Assembly: GCA_018167975.1 (NCBI GenBank)
Contig: GCA_018167975.1_4333.1
Strand: one strand, 5' to 3'
From: a phage
DNA length: 42,822 bases
The notes under the pieces: model-generated
What the model saw: the letters and a program-made list of their open reading frames with translations, nothing else
Told to the model about the DNA's origin: nothing
The model's database searches: none
Made by a program: the position numbers and the translations under genes
Shown: one piece after another, positions 3,338-42,822 of the stretch
Position numbering within the stretch: the stretch's first letter is position 1
Layout of the letters: every line of letters starts with the position of its first letter

Positions 3338-3368
3338 CTTTTGTCTCTCCTCTCGTTTGTGTAAATGA

Positions 3369-3397
3369 ATAGTAGCCTATTCTATCTTAGCGTGCAA
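3369..3397 (-). promoter_or_regulatory. Sigma70-like promoter (minus strand): -35 TTGCAC, 17-bp spacer, -10 TACTAT, with AATAG-N4-CTATT palindrome in the spacer
   Basis: rc of 3392-3397 = TTGCAC; rc of 3369-3374 = TACTAT; spacer 17 nt; same design as the promoters at 4831, 26106, 35159 and 37018. Confidence 0.5.
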
Positions 3398-3557
3398 GTA
3401 AATTTTATTGGTGTTTGTATTGTTGCATCTCCTGCAATAGTCGCTTCGATTGTTGCGTTTGGTGAAATAGAACAAAAATGAGAAAAATGATACGCTGCTG
3501 TGTAGCAGCGTAAGTCACAAAGCCAAATAGTAACCTATTGACCTGTTACACCACCTG

Positions 3558-4385: not shown

Positions 4386-4617
4386 GGCAACCTCCCTCAG
4401 AGTCGTCGGCACTGGCATCATGATTCGATGCCGTTGTGAATAACGCTAACCATCTCCAGGTATAAACACCCATACGCCCTTCATACACATCCTCGTCAGT
4501 TACCCGATAATCATCGCCATCATCAGAGGTAACGTACCCATCGATACTTAACGTATAACGCTTTCCTTCTGTGAAGTAATCGCAGAGACTGGTAACGCAA
4601 ATTAATTCTTCCATCAC
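4375..4617 (-). CDS. Hypothetical acidic protein
   Basis: ORF with Asp/Glu-rich middle (TSDDGDDYRVTDEDVYEG); start overlaps the upstream stop. Confidence 0.4.
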   Translation of the reverse strand: MMEELICVTSLCDYFTEGKRYTLSIDGYVTSDDGDDYRVTDEDVYEGRMGVYTWRWLALFTTASNHDASADDSEGGCRVK

Positions 4618-4796
4618 TTCGCCCCTTTGAATTTAAAATTGTTGCCGATGAGTGTTAGCTCGTCTTCACGCACCCCCACGTCAAAGTCCCATTCTGGGTG
4701 CGTGAGATGGTACGACCCTGGAACTTTATTCGGAACTCGTTTAATAATTCCATATTGGCCCTGTACAGTTTTAACCAACTGACCACGTTTAAACAT
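4614..4796 (-). CDS. Hypothetical protein (first gene of leftward accessory operon)
   Basis: ORF 4614..4805; ATG at 4794-4796 preceded by GAGGAG; lies about 30 nt downstream of the leftward promoter at 4831-4859. Confidence 0.45.
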   Translation of the reverse strand: MFKRGQLVKTVQGQYGIIKRVPNKVPGSYHLTHPEWDFDVGVREDELTLIGNNFKFKGAK

Positions 4797-4830
4797 AACC
4801 CTCACTCCTCTGTCTCGTTTCGATAAGTGA

Positions 4831-4859
4831 ATAGTATCCTATTATGTTGGGGTGTGCAA
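4831..4859 (-). promoter_or_regulatory. Sigma70-like promoter (minus strand): -35 TTGCAC, 17-bp spacer, -10 TACTAT, with embedded AATAG-N4-CTATT palindrome
   Basis: rc of 4854-4859 = TTGCAC, rc of 4831-4836 = TACTAT; the 37 nt 4824-4860 are an exact reverse-complement copy of 26105-26141. Confidence 0.55.
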
Positions 4860-5195
4860 GAGAATAGTTACGTTGCCGTTGTGATTCTTTCGTGTAATAG
4901 GATAGCGAGCGAAACGAAACGAACGTGGTGCCGAAGGCACCAAGAGTGAGTGAGTGAGCTTGCGAATCAATAACTTATATCATGTGGTAAAATTTAAATA
5001 GACGGGGGCTTTCTTGCGACTTGCTGTTACTTTGAGGAAACTTAGATACTAACGTTGTCGAAGTGACTCTCAGCGCCCGTCCTTCATTGGCCGGGCTTTG
5101 GTCACCAGAGACTTAATAATAATGTTTCTAAGTAATTCTAAACTAAAGTCCTTCGATACGTTGATTTTACAGCTACATTTTATTTTGTCAACAGG

Positions 5196-5224
5196 TTGTG
5201 TTTAGCTATCGTGGGTGTTATAGT
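5196..5224 (+). promoter_or_regulatory. Candidate early rightward promoter: -35 TTGTGT, 17-bp spacer, -10 TATAGT
   Basis: TATAGT at 5219-5224 (the -10 hexamer shared by the plus-strand promoters at 8656, 10943 and 15053); weak -35; 30 nt upstream of the HTH gene start. Confidence 0.35.
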
Positions 5225-5253
5225 TGTTTCACTTGATAAAGAGGGCGCGTAAA

Positions 5254-5433
5254 ATGACACAGAAAGAAGTAGCAGACTTAATAGGGGTATCTCCTATGAC
5301 GCTTAATCGCTGGTTACGGTCTGGTAAGTTCCCGGAGTGTTGCCGGGTTATTAATGGCTACCGGCAGCCCGGTACTTTTGACCGCGCTACTGTGGAGGAG
5401 TGGATTAAGGAGAACGTGAAAGATGTTAACTAA
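5254..5433 (+). CDS. Small helix-turn-helix DNA-binding protein (AlpA/Xis/MerR-like HTH)
   Basis: MTQKEVADLIGVSPMTLNRWLRSGKFP is a classic HTH segment; ATG at 5254 with GAGGG RBS; first gene of the rightward early operon. Confidence 0.55.
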   Translation: MTQKEVADLIGVSPMTLNRWLRSGKFPECCRVINGYRQPGTFDRATVEEWIKENVKDVN

Positions 5434-8338: not shown

Positions 8339-8362
8339 AAAGAAAGGGGCGTTAAGCCCCTT
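8333..8362. terminator. Bidirectional hairpin terminator between convergent genes
   Basis: Stem AGGGGC (8345-8350) / GCCCCT (8356-8361), loop GTTAA; A-rich tract upstream on the plus strand gives a U-tract for the minus-strand (Cro-like gene) transcript. Confidence 0.5.
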
Positions 8363-8567
8363 CACCGAACGCCAGCCACTTGGCGTCTACTTCCAGCACT
8401 TCCGCCAGTTTAAACAGCGTCGCCGGGCGGACGTCCTGAGTTACTCCAAGTGCCAGCTGGTTAATTACGCCCTGGGAAACGCCAGCCAGGACAGCAAGAC
8501 GGCGCTGGGAGATGCCGAGTTCTTTACGACGTTGTTCTACACGGATGCCTAGTTCAGATGGTTGCAT
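8352..8567 (-). CDS. Cro/CI-type (XRE-family) HTH transcriptional regulator
   Basis: 71 aa; ELGISQRRLAVLAGVSQGVINQL is a canonical XRE HTH; AAGGAG RBS; divergently transcribed from the rightward early promoter at 8632-8661. Confidence 0.7.
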   Translation of the reverse strand: MQPSELGIRVEQRRKELGISQRRLAVLAGVSQGVINQLALGVTQDVRPATLFKLAEVLEVDAKWLAFGEGA

Positions 8568-8598
8568 GTCAATTACTCCTTAGTCAGTTGATATGTGA

Positions 8599-8627
8599 AT
8601 AGTACCATATTAATTATTTTAGAAAAG
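8599..8627 (-). promoter_or_regulatory. Candidate promoter of the Cro-like regulator gene (extended -10 TGGTACTAT, weak -35)
   Basis: rc of 8599-8607 = TGGTACTAT (TGn extended -10); spacer region carries a degenerate copy of the AATAG palindrome; back-to-back with the plus-strand promoter. Confidence 0.4.
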
Positions 8628-8631
8628 CCCA

Positions 8632-8661
8632 TTGACAACATGAATAGTTCGCTATTATAGT
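8632..8661 (+). promoter_or_regulatory. Sigma70-like promoter: -35 TTGACA, 18-bp spacer, -10 TATAGT, palindrome AATAGTTCGCTATT in spacer
   Basis: TTGACA 8632-8637, TATAGT 8656-8661; AATAG-N4-CTATT at 8643-8656; followed by GAGGAG RBS and the ATG at 8693. Confidence 0.6.
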
Positions 8662-8692
8662 TAGCGCATACCAAACGAGAGGAGAGAAACAA

Positions 8693-10768: not shown

Positions 10769-10923
10769 TTCGTAAAATTAAATATTGGGGGCTGGTTTCC
10801 CCTTTTATCGTAATAGGCGCGTTTACTTCGTCTATCGCGTGGGTAGACCGTAAACTTAGCGACAGTGAAACAATCGAGCGTTATTTTCTTTGGTGTGAGA
10901 AAGTTTCTAAAATTAAGCGTTGA
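10765..10923 (+). CDS. Small membrane protein (52 aa, 1 TM)
   Basis: ATGA overlap with the nuclease stop; GGAGG RBS embedded in the upstream coding sequence; hydrophobic WGLVSPFIVIGAFTSSIAW. Confidence 0.4.
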   Translation: MIRKIKYWGLVSPFIVIGAFTSSIAWVDRKLSDSETIERYFLWCEKVSKIKR

Positions 10924-10948
10924 CACCTGAATAGTTAGCTATTATAGT
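10920..10948 (+). promoter_or_regulatory. Sigma70-like promoter: -35 TTGACA, 17-bp spacer, -10 TATAGT, palindrome AATAGTTAGCTATT in spacer
   Basis: TTGACA 10920-10925, TATAGT 10943-10948; upstream of the SSB-like gene. Confidence 0.6.
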
Positions 10949-11633: not shown

Positions 11634-11652
11634 TATCTGAATCAATTTAACT

Positions 11653-11677
11653 AAGGCCCTTCATTGGGCCTTTTTAC
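11653..11677 (+). terminator. Rho-independent terminator
   Basis: Stem AGGCCC (11654-11659) / GGGCCT (11666-11671), loop TTCATT, followed by TTTTT. Confidence 0.6.
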
Positions 11678-14780: not shown

Positions 14781-15091
14781 CCCCGGAAGGCAAGATTCAG
14801 AAATACGCAAAAGAGCAATTCGAGGCCATTGGTGGCCTCGTTCGCAAGATGGCATTTGAAGGTCGGCGAGCCGCTATGGACCTCCTGGTAATTCTCCCCG
14901 GAGGCATCATCTGGTTCGTTGAGGTGAAGAAAGACGAAAATACGAAGCCGGAGCCACACCAGCTACGCGAGCATGAAAGATTCCGAAAACGTGGCGCGAA
15001 TGTTTTTGTCGTTGGTTCGTTTAAACAGGTTGACACCCTAATAGCAGACTATTATAGTAAACACATACCCCAACAATATAAGGAATTATAA
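14777..15091 (+). CDS. VRR-NUC domain nuclease (PD-(D/E)XK fold)
   Basis: ORF 14762..15091; ATG at 14777; DLLVILPGGIIWFVEVKK (D...E-V-K catalytic pattern) and the small size fit VRR-NUC. Confidence 0.55.
   Translation: MTPEGKIQKYAKEQFEAIGGLVRKMAFEGRRAAMDLLVILPGGIIWFVEVKKDENTKPEPHQLREHERFRKRGANVFVVGSFKQVDTLIADYYSKHIPQQYKEL
15030..15058 (+). promoter_or_regulatory. Sigma70-like promoter: -35 TTGACA, 17-bp spacer, -10 TATAGT, palindrome AATAGCAGACTATT in spacer
   Basis: TTGACA 15030-15035, TATAGT 15053-15058; lies inside the 3' end of the VRR-NUC gene, upstream of the 15093 gene. Confidence 0.55.
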
Positions 15092-17315: not shown

Positions 17316-17348
17316 AGAAAAGGCCCCGTTTGGGGCCTTAGTTTTATG
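17316..17348. terminator. Bidirectional Rho-independent terminator at convergence of replication (plus) and structural (minus) modules
   Basis: AAGGCCCC-GTTT-GGGGCCTT (17320-17339) followed by TAGTTTTATG on the plus strand and by TTTCTCTACT on the minus strand. Confidence 0.65.
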
Positions 17349-34839: not shown

Positions 34840-35090
34840 GTTTCTCCTTTCTCGATAAGTAAAGCCCCGCCATAAAGCGGGGCGCTAGTCCTTATCATTT
34901 AAACATAGAAACGGCGTAATCTCAGTAAACCAGTTACTTTTTACACAAGCAATAGAGTATGGCCCTTCCGAACGCGTCAGCGTAACTACACTCAGGACTT
35001 ACGTCCCGCTTCGTTACCTGCCCGCGCCGCGGTCGCTTGTTCATACTTCACAAGCTCAGGTGAAGCTTAGCATATTTTTAGTGAAAAGTC

Positions 35091-35106
35091 AACTATTCGA
35101 ATAGTT
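35091..35106. promoter_or_regulatory. Perfect 16-bp palindrome AACTATTCGAATAGTT (candidate regulator binding site)
   Basis: Self-complementary; shares the GAATAG/CTATTC half-site with the promoter-embedded palindromes; lies in the 380-bp intergenic region upstream of Rz and the 35222 moron. Confidence 0.4.
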
Positions 35107-35158
35107 TATTCCGACATTTACAATTGAGGGTAATAACTGGAATACGTAAACAAATAGT

Positions 35159-35187
35159 TTGCACACCCCAACATAATAGGGTACTAT
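35159..35187 (+). promoter_or_regulatory. Sigma70-like promoter: -35 TTGCAC, 17-bp spacer, -10 TACTAT, palindrome AATAGGGTACTATT
   Basis: TTGCAC 35159-35164, TACTAT 35182-35187; near-identical to the promoters at 26106 and 4831 (rc). Confidence 0.6.
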
Positions 35188-35221
35188 TCATTACATCGAA
35201 ACGAGAGATAAGGAATTTAGA

Positions 35222-35441
35222 GATGAACAAAGCTACCGCAAACGTGGTCCGCGCTATCGAAGAACTTTACGGCATTGATATCGCGAGCCGTGTGCTTATC
35301 GGAAACAAACGTAACTTTTTTACCTTTTGCACGGATGGTATGGAAGAGAACGATTTTAACAACGTTCAACGTTTTGCTAACGAACACGGTCTACGCAACG
35401 AGCCAGCAGGTTACAAGAAATTCGCTATATTCTTTAAATAA
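35222..35441 (+). CDS. Hypothetical protein encoded by a rightward moron
   Basis: ORF 35124..35441; ATG at 35222 with AAGGAA RBS; own promoter and terminator; opposite in orientation to the flanking head genes. Confidence 0.5.
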
Positions 35442-35470
35442 AACTAAGGCCCCGAAAGGGGCCTTTTATC
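35442..35470. terminator. Bidirectional Rho-independent terminator between convergent genes
   Basis: AAGGCCCC-GAAA-GGGGCCTT (35446-35465), U-tracts on both strands. Confidence 0.65.
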
Positions 35471-36973: not shown

Positions 36974-37017
36974 ATGCCCTCCTATAGTACCGCCAGTGTA
37001 ACGCATAAAAATAGTAT

Positions 37018-37046
37018 TTGCAGGCACCAATATAATAGGGTACTAT
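37018..37046 (+). promoter_or_regulatory. Sigma70-like promoter: -35 TTGCAG, 17-bp spacer, -10 TACTAT, palindrome AATAGGGTACTATT
   Basis: TTGCAG 37018-37023, TACTAT 37041-37046; followed by CAGGAGGG RBS and the ATG at 37072. Confidence 0.55.
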
Positions 37047-37071
37047 TCAGTTAACTTAAACAGGAGGGTGT

Positions 37072-37317
37072 ATGCAGGAATTACCTAGTTGCGAACGTGA
37101 GTTCATTGGCGGGTTCATACCGGTTAATAATCTCAGTATATCGGACTTATTTGACCTAAGAGAAAATGGCAGACTTTGGGTGTGCAATGCGAAAGATGCT
37201 TCAAAAGCTAGAGTATGGAACTTTAGTTTAATGCGCCGTCCGAACAAATCTGGCGAAGGTGCTGTCGGTATGGATTTGTTGCAACGCAAAGGTAAGCTAT
37301 TTATGAGAGTGCGATAA
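37072..37317 (+). CDS. Hypothetical protein encoded by a rightward moron
   Basis: 81 aa; own promoter, RBS AGGAGGG and terminator; sits between portal and head morphogenesis genes on the opposite strand. Confidence 0.5.
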   Translation: MQELPSCEREFIGGFIPVNNLSISDLFDLRENGRLWVCNAKDASKARVWNFSLMRRPNKSGEGAVGMDLLQRKGKLFMRVR

Positions 37318-37318
37318 A

Positions 37319-37348
37319 ACTAAGGCCCCTTACGGGGCCTTTTCTCTA
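37319..37348. terminator. Bidirectional Rho-independent terminator
   Basis: AAGGCCCC-TTAC-GGGGCCTT (37322-37341) followed by TTCTCT on plus; overlaps the portal stop codon. Confidence 0.6.
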
Positions 37349-42737: not shown

Positions 42738-42772
42738 TTCTCTCTACTCCGTTCTCGTTGTCGATGAAGTAA

Positions 42773-42801
42773 ATATAATAGGGTCGTAGGTAATAGTCAA
42801 C
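42773..42801 (-). promoter_or_regulatory. Candidate leftward promoter: -35 TTGACT, 17-bp spacer, -10 TATATT
   Basis: rc of 42796-42801 = TTGACT; rc of 42773-42778 = TATATT; region contains AATAGGG/TAATAG motif relatives. Confidence 0.35.
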
Positions 42802-42822
42802 TAGTCATTACAGAAAACATAT

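Follow-up and report, generated by a model that had tools for sequence, protein, structure and literature searches.

The 42,822-nucleotide (nt) phage contig GCA_018167975.1_4333.1 (NCBI GenBank assembly GCA_018167975.1; this whole stretch is called the window below) carries two copies of a 37-nt sequence in inverted orientation, at 4824-4860 on the minus strand and at 26105-26141 on the plus strand. Comparison of these copies with other sites in the window and with related phage genomes leads us to regard it as fairly probable that the 37-mer makes up one whole promoter, which the host RNA polymerase reads and which belongs to a family conserved across the subfamily Guernseyvirinae. We are about equally confident that the inverted repeat embedded in this unit, AATAG-N4-CTATT, is the operator of a 71-amino-acid (aa) protein resembling Cro of phage 434, which is predicted to bind the repeat and to repress the promoters containing it. 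Conserved modules that combine a promoter with an operator are a known general kind, and we count the element among them.

The reading of 4824-4860 on the top strand is TAAGTGAATAGTATCCTATTATGTTGGGGTGTGCAAG, and on direct reading its reverse complement, CTTGCACACCCCAACATAATAGGATACTATTCACTTA, agrees with 26105-26141 in all 37 positions. When the window was searched for the pattern at 0 mismatches, only these two sites were found, and self-comparison returned them as a 100% complementary pair of 37 nt lying 21,244 nt apart (pair I2 of the repeat finder); no such pair occurred in 100 dinucleotide-preserving shuffles. The exact inverted identity proposed in the initial annotation of this DNA was thus borne out, as was the third near-copy at 35158-35190: its 22-nt core TTGCACACCCCAACATAATAGG is exact at 35159-35180, 35159-35190 differs from the 37-mer at 1 position in 32 (pair I5), and 35158-35190 at 2 in 33. 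Beyond these three sites there are further relatives at 3355-3401 (79% over 47 nt), 37017-37050 and 8598-8611, and a second class of promoter is represented at 8632, 10920 and 15030. The flanks of the 4824 and 26105 copies are unrelated right up to the promoter edges, and the 37-nt identity covers approximately -36 to +1, which is exactly one promoter unit.

On sequence similarity the window is the genome of a Kagunavirus, a K1G-like siphophage of the Guernseyvirinae: its first 20 kb match genomes of this genus, with LM02P1 as the nearest relative (92% identity) and 489 matching phage records, nearly all of them Escherichia or Salmonella phages, and its gene order is collinear with that of the annotated relatives SZH-1, K1G and AV104. 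Small genes and lysis genes form a leftward block, the replication genes a rightward one (5.2-17.3 kb), and the structural genes a long leftward block, which is broken by three small rightward islands at 26.1, 35.2 and 37.0 kb.

The 37-mer is one of about 12 promoter-associated sites in the window that have the inverted repeat AATAG-N4-CTATT (hereafter the dyad) in common. Nine exact dyads and four with one mismatch are present, compared with 1.0 +/- 0.95 expected at up to one mismatch, and the dyad is the commonest 5-mer palindrome in the window, above the terminator stems; it is also the commonest in the Jerseyvirus SETP3. The shuffles and this expected dyad count rule out a chance origin for the 37-mer pair and for the dyad family. 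The sites fall into classes according to where the dyad lies. Class A is TTGCAC-N17-TACTAT with the dyad over the -10 (3368, 4830 and 8598 leftward; 26122, 35175 and 37034 rightward), and class B is TTGACA-17/18-TATAGT, matching the sigma-70 consensus at 11 of 12 positions, with the dyad in the spacer (8632, 10920 and 15030, all before replication genes). A tentative class C comprises one-mismatch dyads at 42792-42805 and 35084-35097 that appear to overlap the -35 of leftward TTGACT promoters. The predicted sites are as follows.

4824-4860, minus strand: class A promoter P4830; -35 TTGCAC 4859-4854, -10 TACTAT 4836-4831, dyad AATAG-GATA-CTATT 4830-4843.
26105-26141, plus strand: class A promoter P26122, identical to P4830; -35 26106-26111, -10 26129-26134, dyad 26122-26135.
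35158-35190, plus strand: class A promoter P35175; -35 35159-35164, -10 35182-35187, dyad 35175-35188.
37017-37050, plus strand: class A promoter P37034; TTGCAG 37018-37023, TACTAT 37041-37046, dyad 37034-37047.
3362-3397, minus strand: class A promoter P3368; TTGCAC 3397-3392, TACTAT 3374-3369, dyad 3368-3381; a highly variable first gene lies behind it.
8598-8611, minus strand: one-mismatch dyad (sense AATAT-GGTA-CTATT) over the TACTAT -10 of the Cro-like gene's own promoter.
8632-8661, plus strand: class B promoter; TTGACA-18-TATAGT, 11/12, dyad 8643-8656 in the spacer; divergent from the Cro-like gene.
10920-10948, plus strand: class B promoter; TTGACA-17-TATAGT, dyad 10930-10943; upstream of the DUF2815 and DNA polymerase genes.
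15030-15058, plus strand: class B promoter; TTGACA-17-TATAGT, dyad 15040-15053; upstream of the helicase block.
42772-42805, minus strand: tentative class C promoter; TTGACT-17-TATATT, 10/12, one-mismatch dyad 42792-42805 overlapping the -35.
35084-35097, minus strand: one-mismatch dyad, tentatively class C, around a leftward TTGACT; weak -10; kept in all relatives.
3526-3539, no strand assigned: exact dyad without a recognisable -35, directly upstream of the leftward terminator 3491-3512; conserved in RP180 and LM02P1.

P4830 faces the leftward small-gene operon that starts at 4805, P26122 heads a rightward island within the leftward tail genes, and the tentative promoter at 42772-42805 points toward small nin-like genes and terminase. 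The dyad at 3526-3539 may be an orphan operator or a decayed promoter. The word promoter, already used in the initial annotation, seems reasonable for these sites, given TTGCAC-N17-TACTAT and a correctly oriented gene behind every copy: a ribosome-binding site and an ATG follow every class A and class B copy within 40-110 nt, both in the window and in about 130 related instances. In addition, the 37-mer is annotated as 'promoter' in the GenBank record of phage fBC-Eco01 (OM272052.1). The hexamers of class A agree with the sigma-70 consensus at 7 of 12 positions, keeping TTG and TAnnnT, and therefore lie below the 9/12 threshold of the promoter scan; the TTGC and TACTATTC parts are invariant among full-length orthologues of 26105. 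We also compared the sites by eye with sigma-32 (CCCCAT-like) elements and the sigma-S -10, and no conserved partner element stood at the right spacing across the copies. A promoter on the opposite strand inside the 37-mer was rejected, because -10-like TATTAT and TAGTAT are present there but the corresponding -35 regions are not conserved between copies or alleles.

The dyad is conserved apart from the hexamers. In 24 unique orthologues of the class B promoter whose dyad starts at 8643 (P8643), the arms TGAATAG and CTATTAT are invariant while the central N4 varies, and the 2-4 nt linker between the -35 and the dyad varies in both sequence and length; P10930 (16 unique orthologues) and P15040 (8 unique) have invariant arms in the same pattern. 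Constant arms around a variable N4 are found across orthologues and paralogues alike, as in an operator of the Cro/cI type. The centre of the dyad lies at about -12.5, -18.5 or -33.5 according to the promoter class. Sigma-70 makes no base-specific contacts in the promoter spacer. Because the arms are invariant in the class B spacer and the position of the dyad shifts by class, the dyad appears to be an element in its own right, and since it always overlaps the core promoter, its geometry would be that of a repressor operator.

The candidate for its binder is encoded beside two of the sites.

8352-8567, minus strand: 71-aa Cro-like protein, Pfam HTH_3, proposed to bind the dyad.

This protein matches HTH_3 with E = 5e-12 (46.1 bits, cutoff 23) and falls into PHROGs families annotated as transcriptional repressors; its closest solved relative is phage 434 Cro (E = 1.4e-6, residues 6-68), a protein of equal length. 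The gene was found in 557 phage records, among them essentially all those of Kagunavirus and Jerseyvirus, with 94-99% identity in the former and about 50% in the latter, and in a lambdoid Klebsiella phage a homologue with 44% identity stands in the place of cro. In the window, the one-mismatch dyad in the gene's own promoter (8598-8611) lies 45 bp from the perfect dyad 8643-8656 in the divergent promoter P8632.

The half-site of the dyad and the recognition helix of this protein change together. We surveyed 80 loci homologous to the Cro-like gene and found five helix types accompanied by five dyads. The helix SQG(A/V)INQ goes with AATAG-N4-CTATT upstream of the gene at 25 of 25 loci, and the Jerseyvirus helix SQSLITH with ATAATcG-N4-CTATTAT. 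At all 11 loci with KQQTIQQ the dyad is ACAAAC-N2-GTTTGT, which is of the 434 type (ACAA-N6-TTGT), and (K/R)QQS(I/L)QA goes with ACAGTT-N2-AACTGT at the 4 loci that have a consistent dyad. The fifth helix, TQGGIGH (locus L120), is accompanied by AATAC-N4-GTATT twice in the same divergent layout, one copy perfect and one imperfect, so that both arms have changed symmetrically. At the 17 loci with GMKQQSLQAIEA, a dyad was sought and none was consistent; likewise, a repeated operator was searched for near the XRE-type regulator gene of Serratia phage Smarc4, with no clear result.

434 Cro binds 14-bp operators with conserved outer bases. The system in the window resembles that of 434 Cro/cI in several ways. 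Its putative regulator, an HTH_3 protein of 71 aa, has 434 Cro as its best solved relative; the dyad measures 14 bp and is constant in its outer bases but variable in the centre; and sites lie in the regulator's own promoter and in the divergent one. At the same place, homologues with a QQ-type recognition helix have the 434-type dyad ACAAAC-N2-GTTTGT. Unlike 434, the phage is virulent and lacks a cI partner, an integrase and an immunity region; instead of two tripartite operator regions there are about 12 putative operators spread over the genome, and the half-site is AATAG, not ACAA. We propose that a dimer of the Cro-like protein on the dyad would block RNA polymerase at the class A promoters, where the dyad lies over the -10, and at the class B replication promoters, where it lies in the spacer, and probably also at the two leftward promoters with the dyad over the -35 and at the regulator's own promoter. 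The last three are one-mismatch sites and presumably weaker, and transcription would then be turned down genome-wide in a graded manner as the Cro-like protein accumulates.

Several points weigh against this proposal. The covariation of half-site and helix rests on few independent lineages. The right arm CTATT(AT) resembles a -10, so that part of its invariance could be a constraint of the promoter. Class A hexamers with 7 of 12 matches, below the scan threshold, might need an activator, and the class A spacer (ACCCCAAYAT; TTGCA..ACC in Jerseyvirus) shows more conservation than the operator would account for. A second DNA-binding protein of the window, described below, is an alternative candidate binder. 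Finally, the sole RNA-seq study of a Kagunavirus, on K1B4, gives only coarse per-gene classes of peak time under an ambiguous gene numbering.

One alternative is that the dyad has no dedicated binder at all, and that its overlapping -10-like hexamers TACTAT, TATTAT and TATAGT are used by the host polymerase in several registers and kept merely as good promoters. CTATTAT and ATAATAG indeed each contain -10-like hexamers, and the -10 overlaps the right arm in three registers, those of class A, class B and the superinfection-immunity promoter of SETP3. We nevertheless consider this rather unlikely, because the left arm AATAG in the class B spacer is invariant in 24/24, 16/16 and 8/8 unique orthologues beside a hypervariable linker, because the exact dyad at 3526-3539 exists without a promoter, and because the arms at L120 changed symmetrically together with the recognition helix of the Cro-like protein.

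The other alternative concerns the binder.

5224-5433, plus strand: 69-aa protein, Pfam HTH_17 (excisionase/MerR-like), a rival candidate regulator.

This protein might bind the dyad, or activate class A through TTGCAC and the ACC-rich spacer. Its 58-70% identity between Kagunavirus and Jerseyvirus, together with the poor -35 and the conserved spacer of class A, would fit such a role. So would the K1B4 data, in which a helix-turn-helix gene, probably the HTH_17 gene by gene order, is among only four early genes, and the Salmonella phage STP-1 (L069), which lacks both the HTH_17 gene and the TTGCA..ACC motif. STP-1, however, retains the Cro-like gene and palindromic promoter motifs, and the recognition helix of the HTH_17 protein is SPMTLNRW in the window and TRRTLNNW in SZH-1, AV104 and SETP3, yet the dyad is unchanged. 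Moreover, HTH_17 proteins of the excisionase type usually bind direct repeats, not dyads. It is therefore improbable, in our judgment, that this protein takes the place of the Cro-like one, and the two roles could be compatible, with the HTH_17 protein at the -35 and spacer and the Cro-like protein at the dyad; the conserved spacer and weak -35 of class A seem to leave room for such an additional activator. In STP-1 and in two IMG/VR contigs from 3300004634 (L077 and L080), all without HTH_17, the invariant upstream flank of 26105 is kept next to a different, TATTAG-N4-CTAATA-like dyad.

If the 37-mer is such a promoter unit, its length would follow from stacked constraints, namely the TTGC -35, the conserved spacer, the 14-bp dyad, the TACTAT -10 overlapping the right arm and the start site. 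The initial annotation had read the identity beyond the hexamers as a sign that a promoter module was copied recently. Distribution among relatives does not agree with this. The promoters stand at the same syntenic positions in SZH-1, LM02P1, K1G, AV104 and RP180, the dyad is present at the corresponding promoters of SETP3, and in all Kagunavirus examined the loci of both 37-mer copies are orthologous and syntenic. With the 37-mer as query, blastn returned 208 phage records with an exact or near copy, 77 of them exact, and all 208 are Guernseyvirinae by name or annotated taxonomy. No match was found in 5,426 E. coli genomes, and a host origin of the 37-mer was rejected on that basis.

We then compared alleles at the two loci. 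Orthologues were taken from IMG/VR by the promoter pattern, and those of 26105 also through the invariant upstream flank, with the 30-nt core of 26042-26087 as an exact search anchor, a retrieval that is unbiased toward the promoter and recovered 42 sites, 40 of them full-length. The 4830 set was partly selected by the search pattern; retrieval through the neighbouring HTH_17 protein gave only 3 loci. The commonest 26105 allele has AATAT and GGG where the window has AACAT and GGA. The window's allele occurs in 4 of the 40 full-length orthologues and, with one further change, in 3 more, and all 7 carriers share the downstream leader allele caatgTTAACTCAAACAGGA. Orthologues of 4824-4860 are identical in K1G and AV104 and one base off in LM02P1. 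When the two 37-mers of one genome were compared, in 29 genomes, the number of differing positions ranged from 0 to 7 with a median of 3 (0 mismatches in 2 genomes, 1 in 3, 2 in 6, 3 in 8, 4 in 5, 5 in 4 and 7 in 1). The C/T states of the two loci are not associated within genomes (C/C 3, C/T 18, T/C 3, T/T 5), which argues against ongoing homogenisation and leads us to reject concerted evolution of the two loci.

A recent duplication or gene conversion that placed one promoter at the other locus in this lineage still has something to recommend it. The window has C (AACAT) and A (GGA) at 26105, the usual states of the 4830 locus, where most 26105 orthologues have T and G. In addition, the superinfection-immunity gene of SETP3 is preceded by an orthologous promoter of another geometry, in which the dyad lies in the spacer and the -10 is TATTAT, so a module was replaced at this locus, although long ago, at genus depth. 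Opposed to recent placement are the presence of the C..A allele in 7 of 40 orthologues in linkage with one leader allele, by which it predates this phage, the fact that only 2 of 29 genomes have 0 mismatches in a distribution that is continuous to 7, the absence of a positive association of C/T states, and the unrelated flanks. A recent event of this kind is thus quite improbable. Nor are paralogues more alike than orthologues, or the locus variable among relatives, as a recent segmental duplication would have it; the initial annotation itself held that a ubiquitous module without locus variation would speak against its proposal, and that is how the two exact copies behave. Because the mismatches form a continuum and the alleles assort independently, we take the exact identity to be a chance pairing of two common alleles under purifying selection, at one end of a continuous range, and the length of the identity to reflect several regulatory constraints rather than recent copying. 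On the other side, old short-patch gene conversion could be the source of the C..A allele at 26105. In the present sample the promoter copies lean toward grouping by locus and not by genome, which speaks against recent copying.

The inverted copies had also been suggested as substrates for inversion. Recombination within them would swap the upstream flanks, so we looked for hybrid junctions and found none in 73 instances, of which 33 are 4830-type sites and 40 are 26122-type sites; the suggestion thus received no support.

The motif itself is not new. PHIRE-detected repeats are conventionally labelled promoters of a phage polymerase, and this one has been listed descriptively for the Guernseyvirinae in PHIRE-based genome papers. 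Seven PHIRE promoters with the consensus tgAATAGTa-ccTATTat-T were ascribed to a phage RNA polymerase in the fBC-Eco01 paper (PMC9825357), seven are listed, without sequence in the text, in the VB_EcoS-Golestan paper (PMC7203180), and the motif TAATAGTACCCTATTATGTT is given in the SGP-C paper (PMC8790156); the elements of fBC-Eco01 and SGP-C are the same motif as the window's dyad. These papers list the motif only, and none of them remarks on the dyad, on the three classes of position, on the Cro-like gene or on the shuffling of the genes behind the promoters. That the motif belongs to a phage-encoded polymerase, as the consensus and the PHIRE convention would have it, is hardly credible, since no RNA polymerase domain is present in the ten large open reading frames (ORFs) of the window (366-875 aa), no polymerase is annotated in SZH-1, K1G, AV104, SETP3 or RP180, and the sites have sigma-70-type hexamers at 17-18 nt spacing. 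The ten ORFs have replication, tail, head or terminase domains, with the 875-aa ORF lacking a Pfam match, and the sole ORF of at least 800 aa is a syntenic tail protein. The published attribution looks like the default PHIRE label, and our reading of the sites as host-type promoters would correct it.

While the promoters are conserved, the genes behind them are not. Conservation stops abruptly at the 3' edge of the promoter in the three rightward islands, and after a short shared leader at 4830 and 3368. When the first ORFs behind about 110 class A sites were clustered, many unrelated families were found at each locus (at least 9 at P35175 and at least 12 at P3368), and three cargo families (families 4, 9 and 10) lie at different promoter loci in different phages. 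The cassettes of the window and their 3' ends are the following.

26176-27932, plus strand: cargo of P26122; superinfection-immunity protein 26176-26367, SbcD-like exonuclease 26406-27536 and two small ORFs.
27935-27965, no strand assigned: conserved bidirectional terminator, 3' end of the P26122 island; 30 nt (27935-27964) identical to 35438-35467, inverted.
35223-35441, plus strand: cargo of P35175, a 72-aa protein (phrog_7673); same family behind P4830 in four IMG/VR contigs.
35438-35470, no strand assigned: conserved terminator, 3' end of the P35175 cassette.
37072-37317, plus strand: cargo of P37034, an 81-aa protein; same family behind P35175 in RP180 and as second gene of the P4830 operon in phage 590B.
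37314-37346, no strand assigned: conserved terminator, 3' end of the P37034 cassette.

Besides the 72-aa and 81-aa families, a 173-aa protein was found behind P37034 in one contig and behind P35175 in another. In contig L025, the 72-aa gene fits exactly into the space that separates P4830 from the leader of the gene normally found first, with the leader motif ATCGAAACGAGA repeated on its two sides. The entire P35175 cassette is missing from K1G, beginning 13 nt before the -35 and extending through the terminator, and the window, AV104 and SZH-1 have three unrelated ORFs between the same P35175 promoter and terminator. The terminators form a second repeat family, bidirectional AAAAGGCCCC-N4-GGGGCCTTAGTTTTAT at 11645-11677, 17318-17348, 27935-27965, 35438-35470 and 37314-37346, which marks the 3' ends of variable cassettes. 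Homologues of the 72-aa protein, 47-56% identical and in part annotated as ip7/ip9 internal head protein, occur in about 158 records, mostly of large (120-172 kb) T4-like myoviruses, and Kagunavirus records with the gene number only about 13; the gene appears to be common to unrelated families of virulent phages.

The idea in the initial annotation that the promoters mark the acquisition or mobilisation of morons holds in part. The variable cargo and the three families that occur at different promoter loci speak for it. The comparative evidence supports the view that the promoters mark conserved sockets for the exchange of accessory genes, and not that the promoter itself is mobile. We propose that a conserved 5' promoter and a conserved 3' terminator would have served as fixed sockets in evolution, between which leader-plus-ORF cargo would be swapped by homologous recombination, across loci and across phages. 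Morons of lambdoid phages are said to have been described by Juhala and Hendrix in 2000 as promoter-gene-terminator units inserted between late genes, and classical morons, each with its own promoter, are expressed from the repressed prophage. The units 26105-27965, 35158-35470 and 37017-37346 are similar in that each combines promoter, gene and terminator, runs against the direction of the structural operon in which it lies, and varies in presence or content among close relatives: those at 35158-35470 and 37017-37346 lie between the genes of another operon and are variably present, and the one at 26105-27965 is always present with variable content. Unlike classical morons, they have one phage-specific type of promoter, and their slots are conserved even into Jerseyvirus.

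A closer parallel is offered by the promoter-early stem-loop (PeSL) cassettes of T4-type phages (Arbiol et al. 2010, PMC2839356; Comeau et al. 2014, PMC4122927). In both systems, highly conserved promoter and terminator motifs recur among small genes that are not essential, related phages differ by insertions, deletions and replacements whose limits are the motifs, and a given gene can be found at different motif copies. PeSL motifs are points of homologous exchange, and comparison of the sequences suggests the same role in the window, one cargo gene of which belongs to the family annotated ip7/ip9 in T4-like phages. A PeSL, however, is a single composite of terminator followed by promoter, whereas in the window promoter and terminator stand at opposite ends of the cassette, with no conserved stem-loop abutting the 37-mer. 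The window's promoters also differ in having the operator-like dyad and, in class A, weak sigma-70 matches as against the strong PeSL promoters, and their carriers are 43-kb siphoviruses, not T4-type phages.

Taken together, these observations allow a wider picture, which we offer tentatively. In this virulent siphovirus, nearly all transcription units may be driven by promoters that embed one Cro-like operator, the quality and position of the site may set the order of shut-off, and the promoter/terminator punctuation may form sockets through which small genes pass from locus to locus, from phage to phage and even from siphoviruses to T4-like myoviruses or back. The PeSL idea that regulatory motifs act as recombination sockets would then extend from T4-like myoviruses to small siphoviruses. 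More generally, a long exact repeat in a phage need not be recent and can result from superimposed regulatory constraints that have lasted as long as the genus itself. Kagunavirus and Jerseyvirus are widely proposed for therapy and biocontrol, and the present analysis gives them a testable map of about 12 promoters, one candidate repressor and defined accessory slots; the sockets suggest natural insertion sites for engineered cargo genes.

Several smaller observations were made around the promoters. Leader motifs are common to different promoters, at 3339-3359 and 8672-8692, at 4806-4823 and at 35191-35222 (CAAACGAGAGGAGAGA, ATCGAAACGAGA and ACACCAACAAT), and at least one joint of a cassette insertion falls within a shared leader motif; these motifs may be translation signals, recombination joints, or both. 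In the gene at 4614-4805, the first behind 4830, the first nine codons, MFK[K/R/N]GQLVK, are constant in about 30 phages and the remainder is strongly variable, which suggests a recombination boundary or a regulatory constraint inside the gene.

On the other side of P4830, 4861-5223 is a 360-bp non-coding stretch between divergent operons. Predicted in it are a leftward promoter close to consensus, TTGACA-16-TAAAAT (5191-5164), and a terminator in the same direction (4942-4926); together they would yield a non-coding RNA of about 230 nt next to the 37-mer on its upstream side. A structured RNA upstream of 4860 was considered and rejected, as its folding was no better than that of shuffled sequence (z-score -0.12), and an Rfam scan of the whole window gave no known RNA family at the gathering thresholds. 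The stretch is partly conserved, in 45 phage records of which none covers 80%, and it could contain the replication origin. Just upstream of the 26105 promoter, the 46-nt block 26042-26087 (GCCAGACGGGAACCACCCGCTTTTCGTGTGCGACACTAGGCGCAAA) is almost invariant in all 27 unique orthologues; it precedes the leftward tail-assembly-chaperone gene and may be the promoter or leader of that operon.

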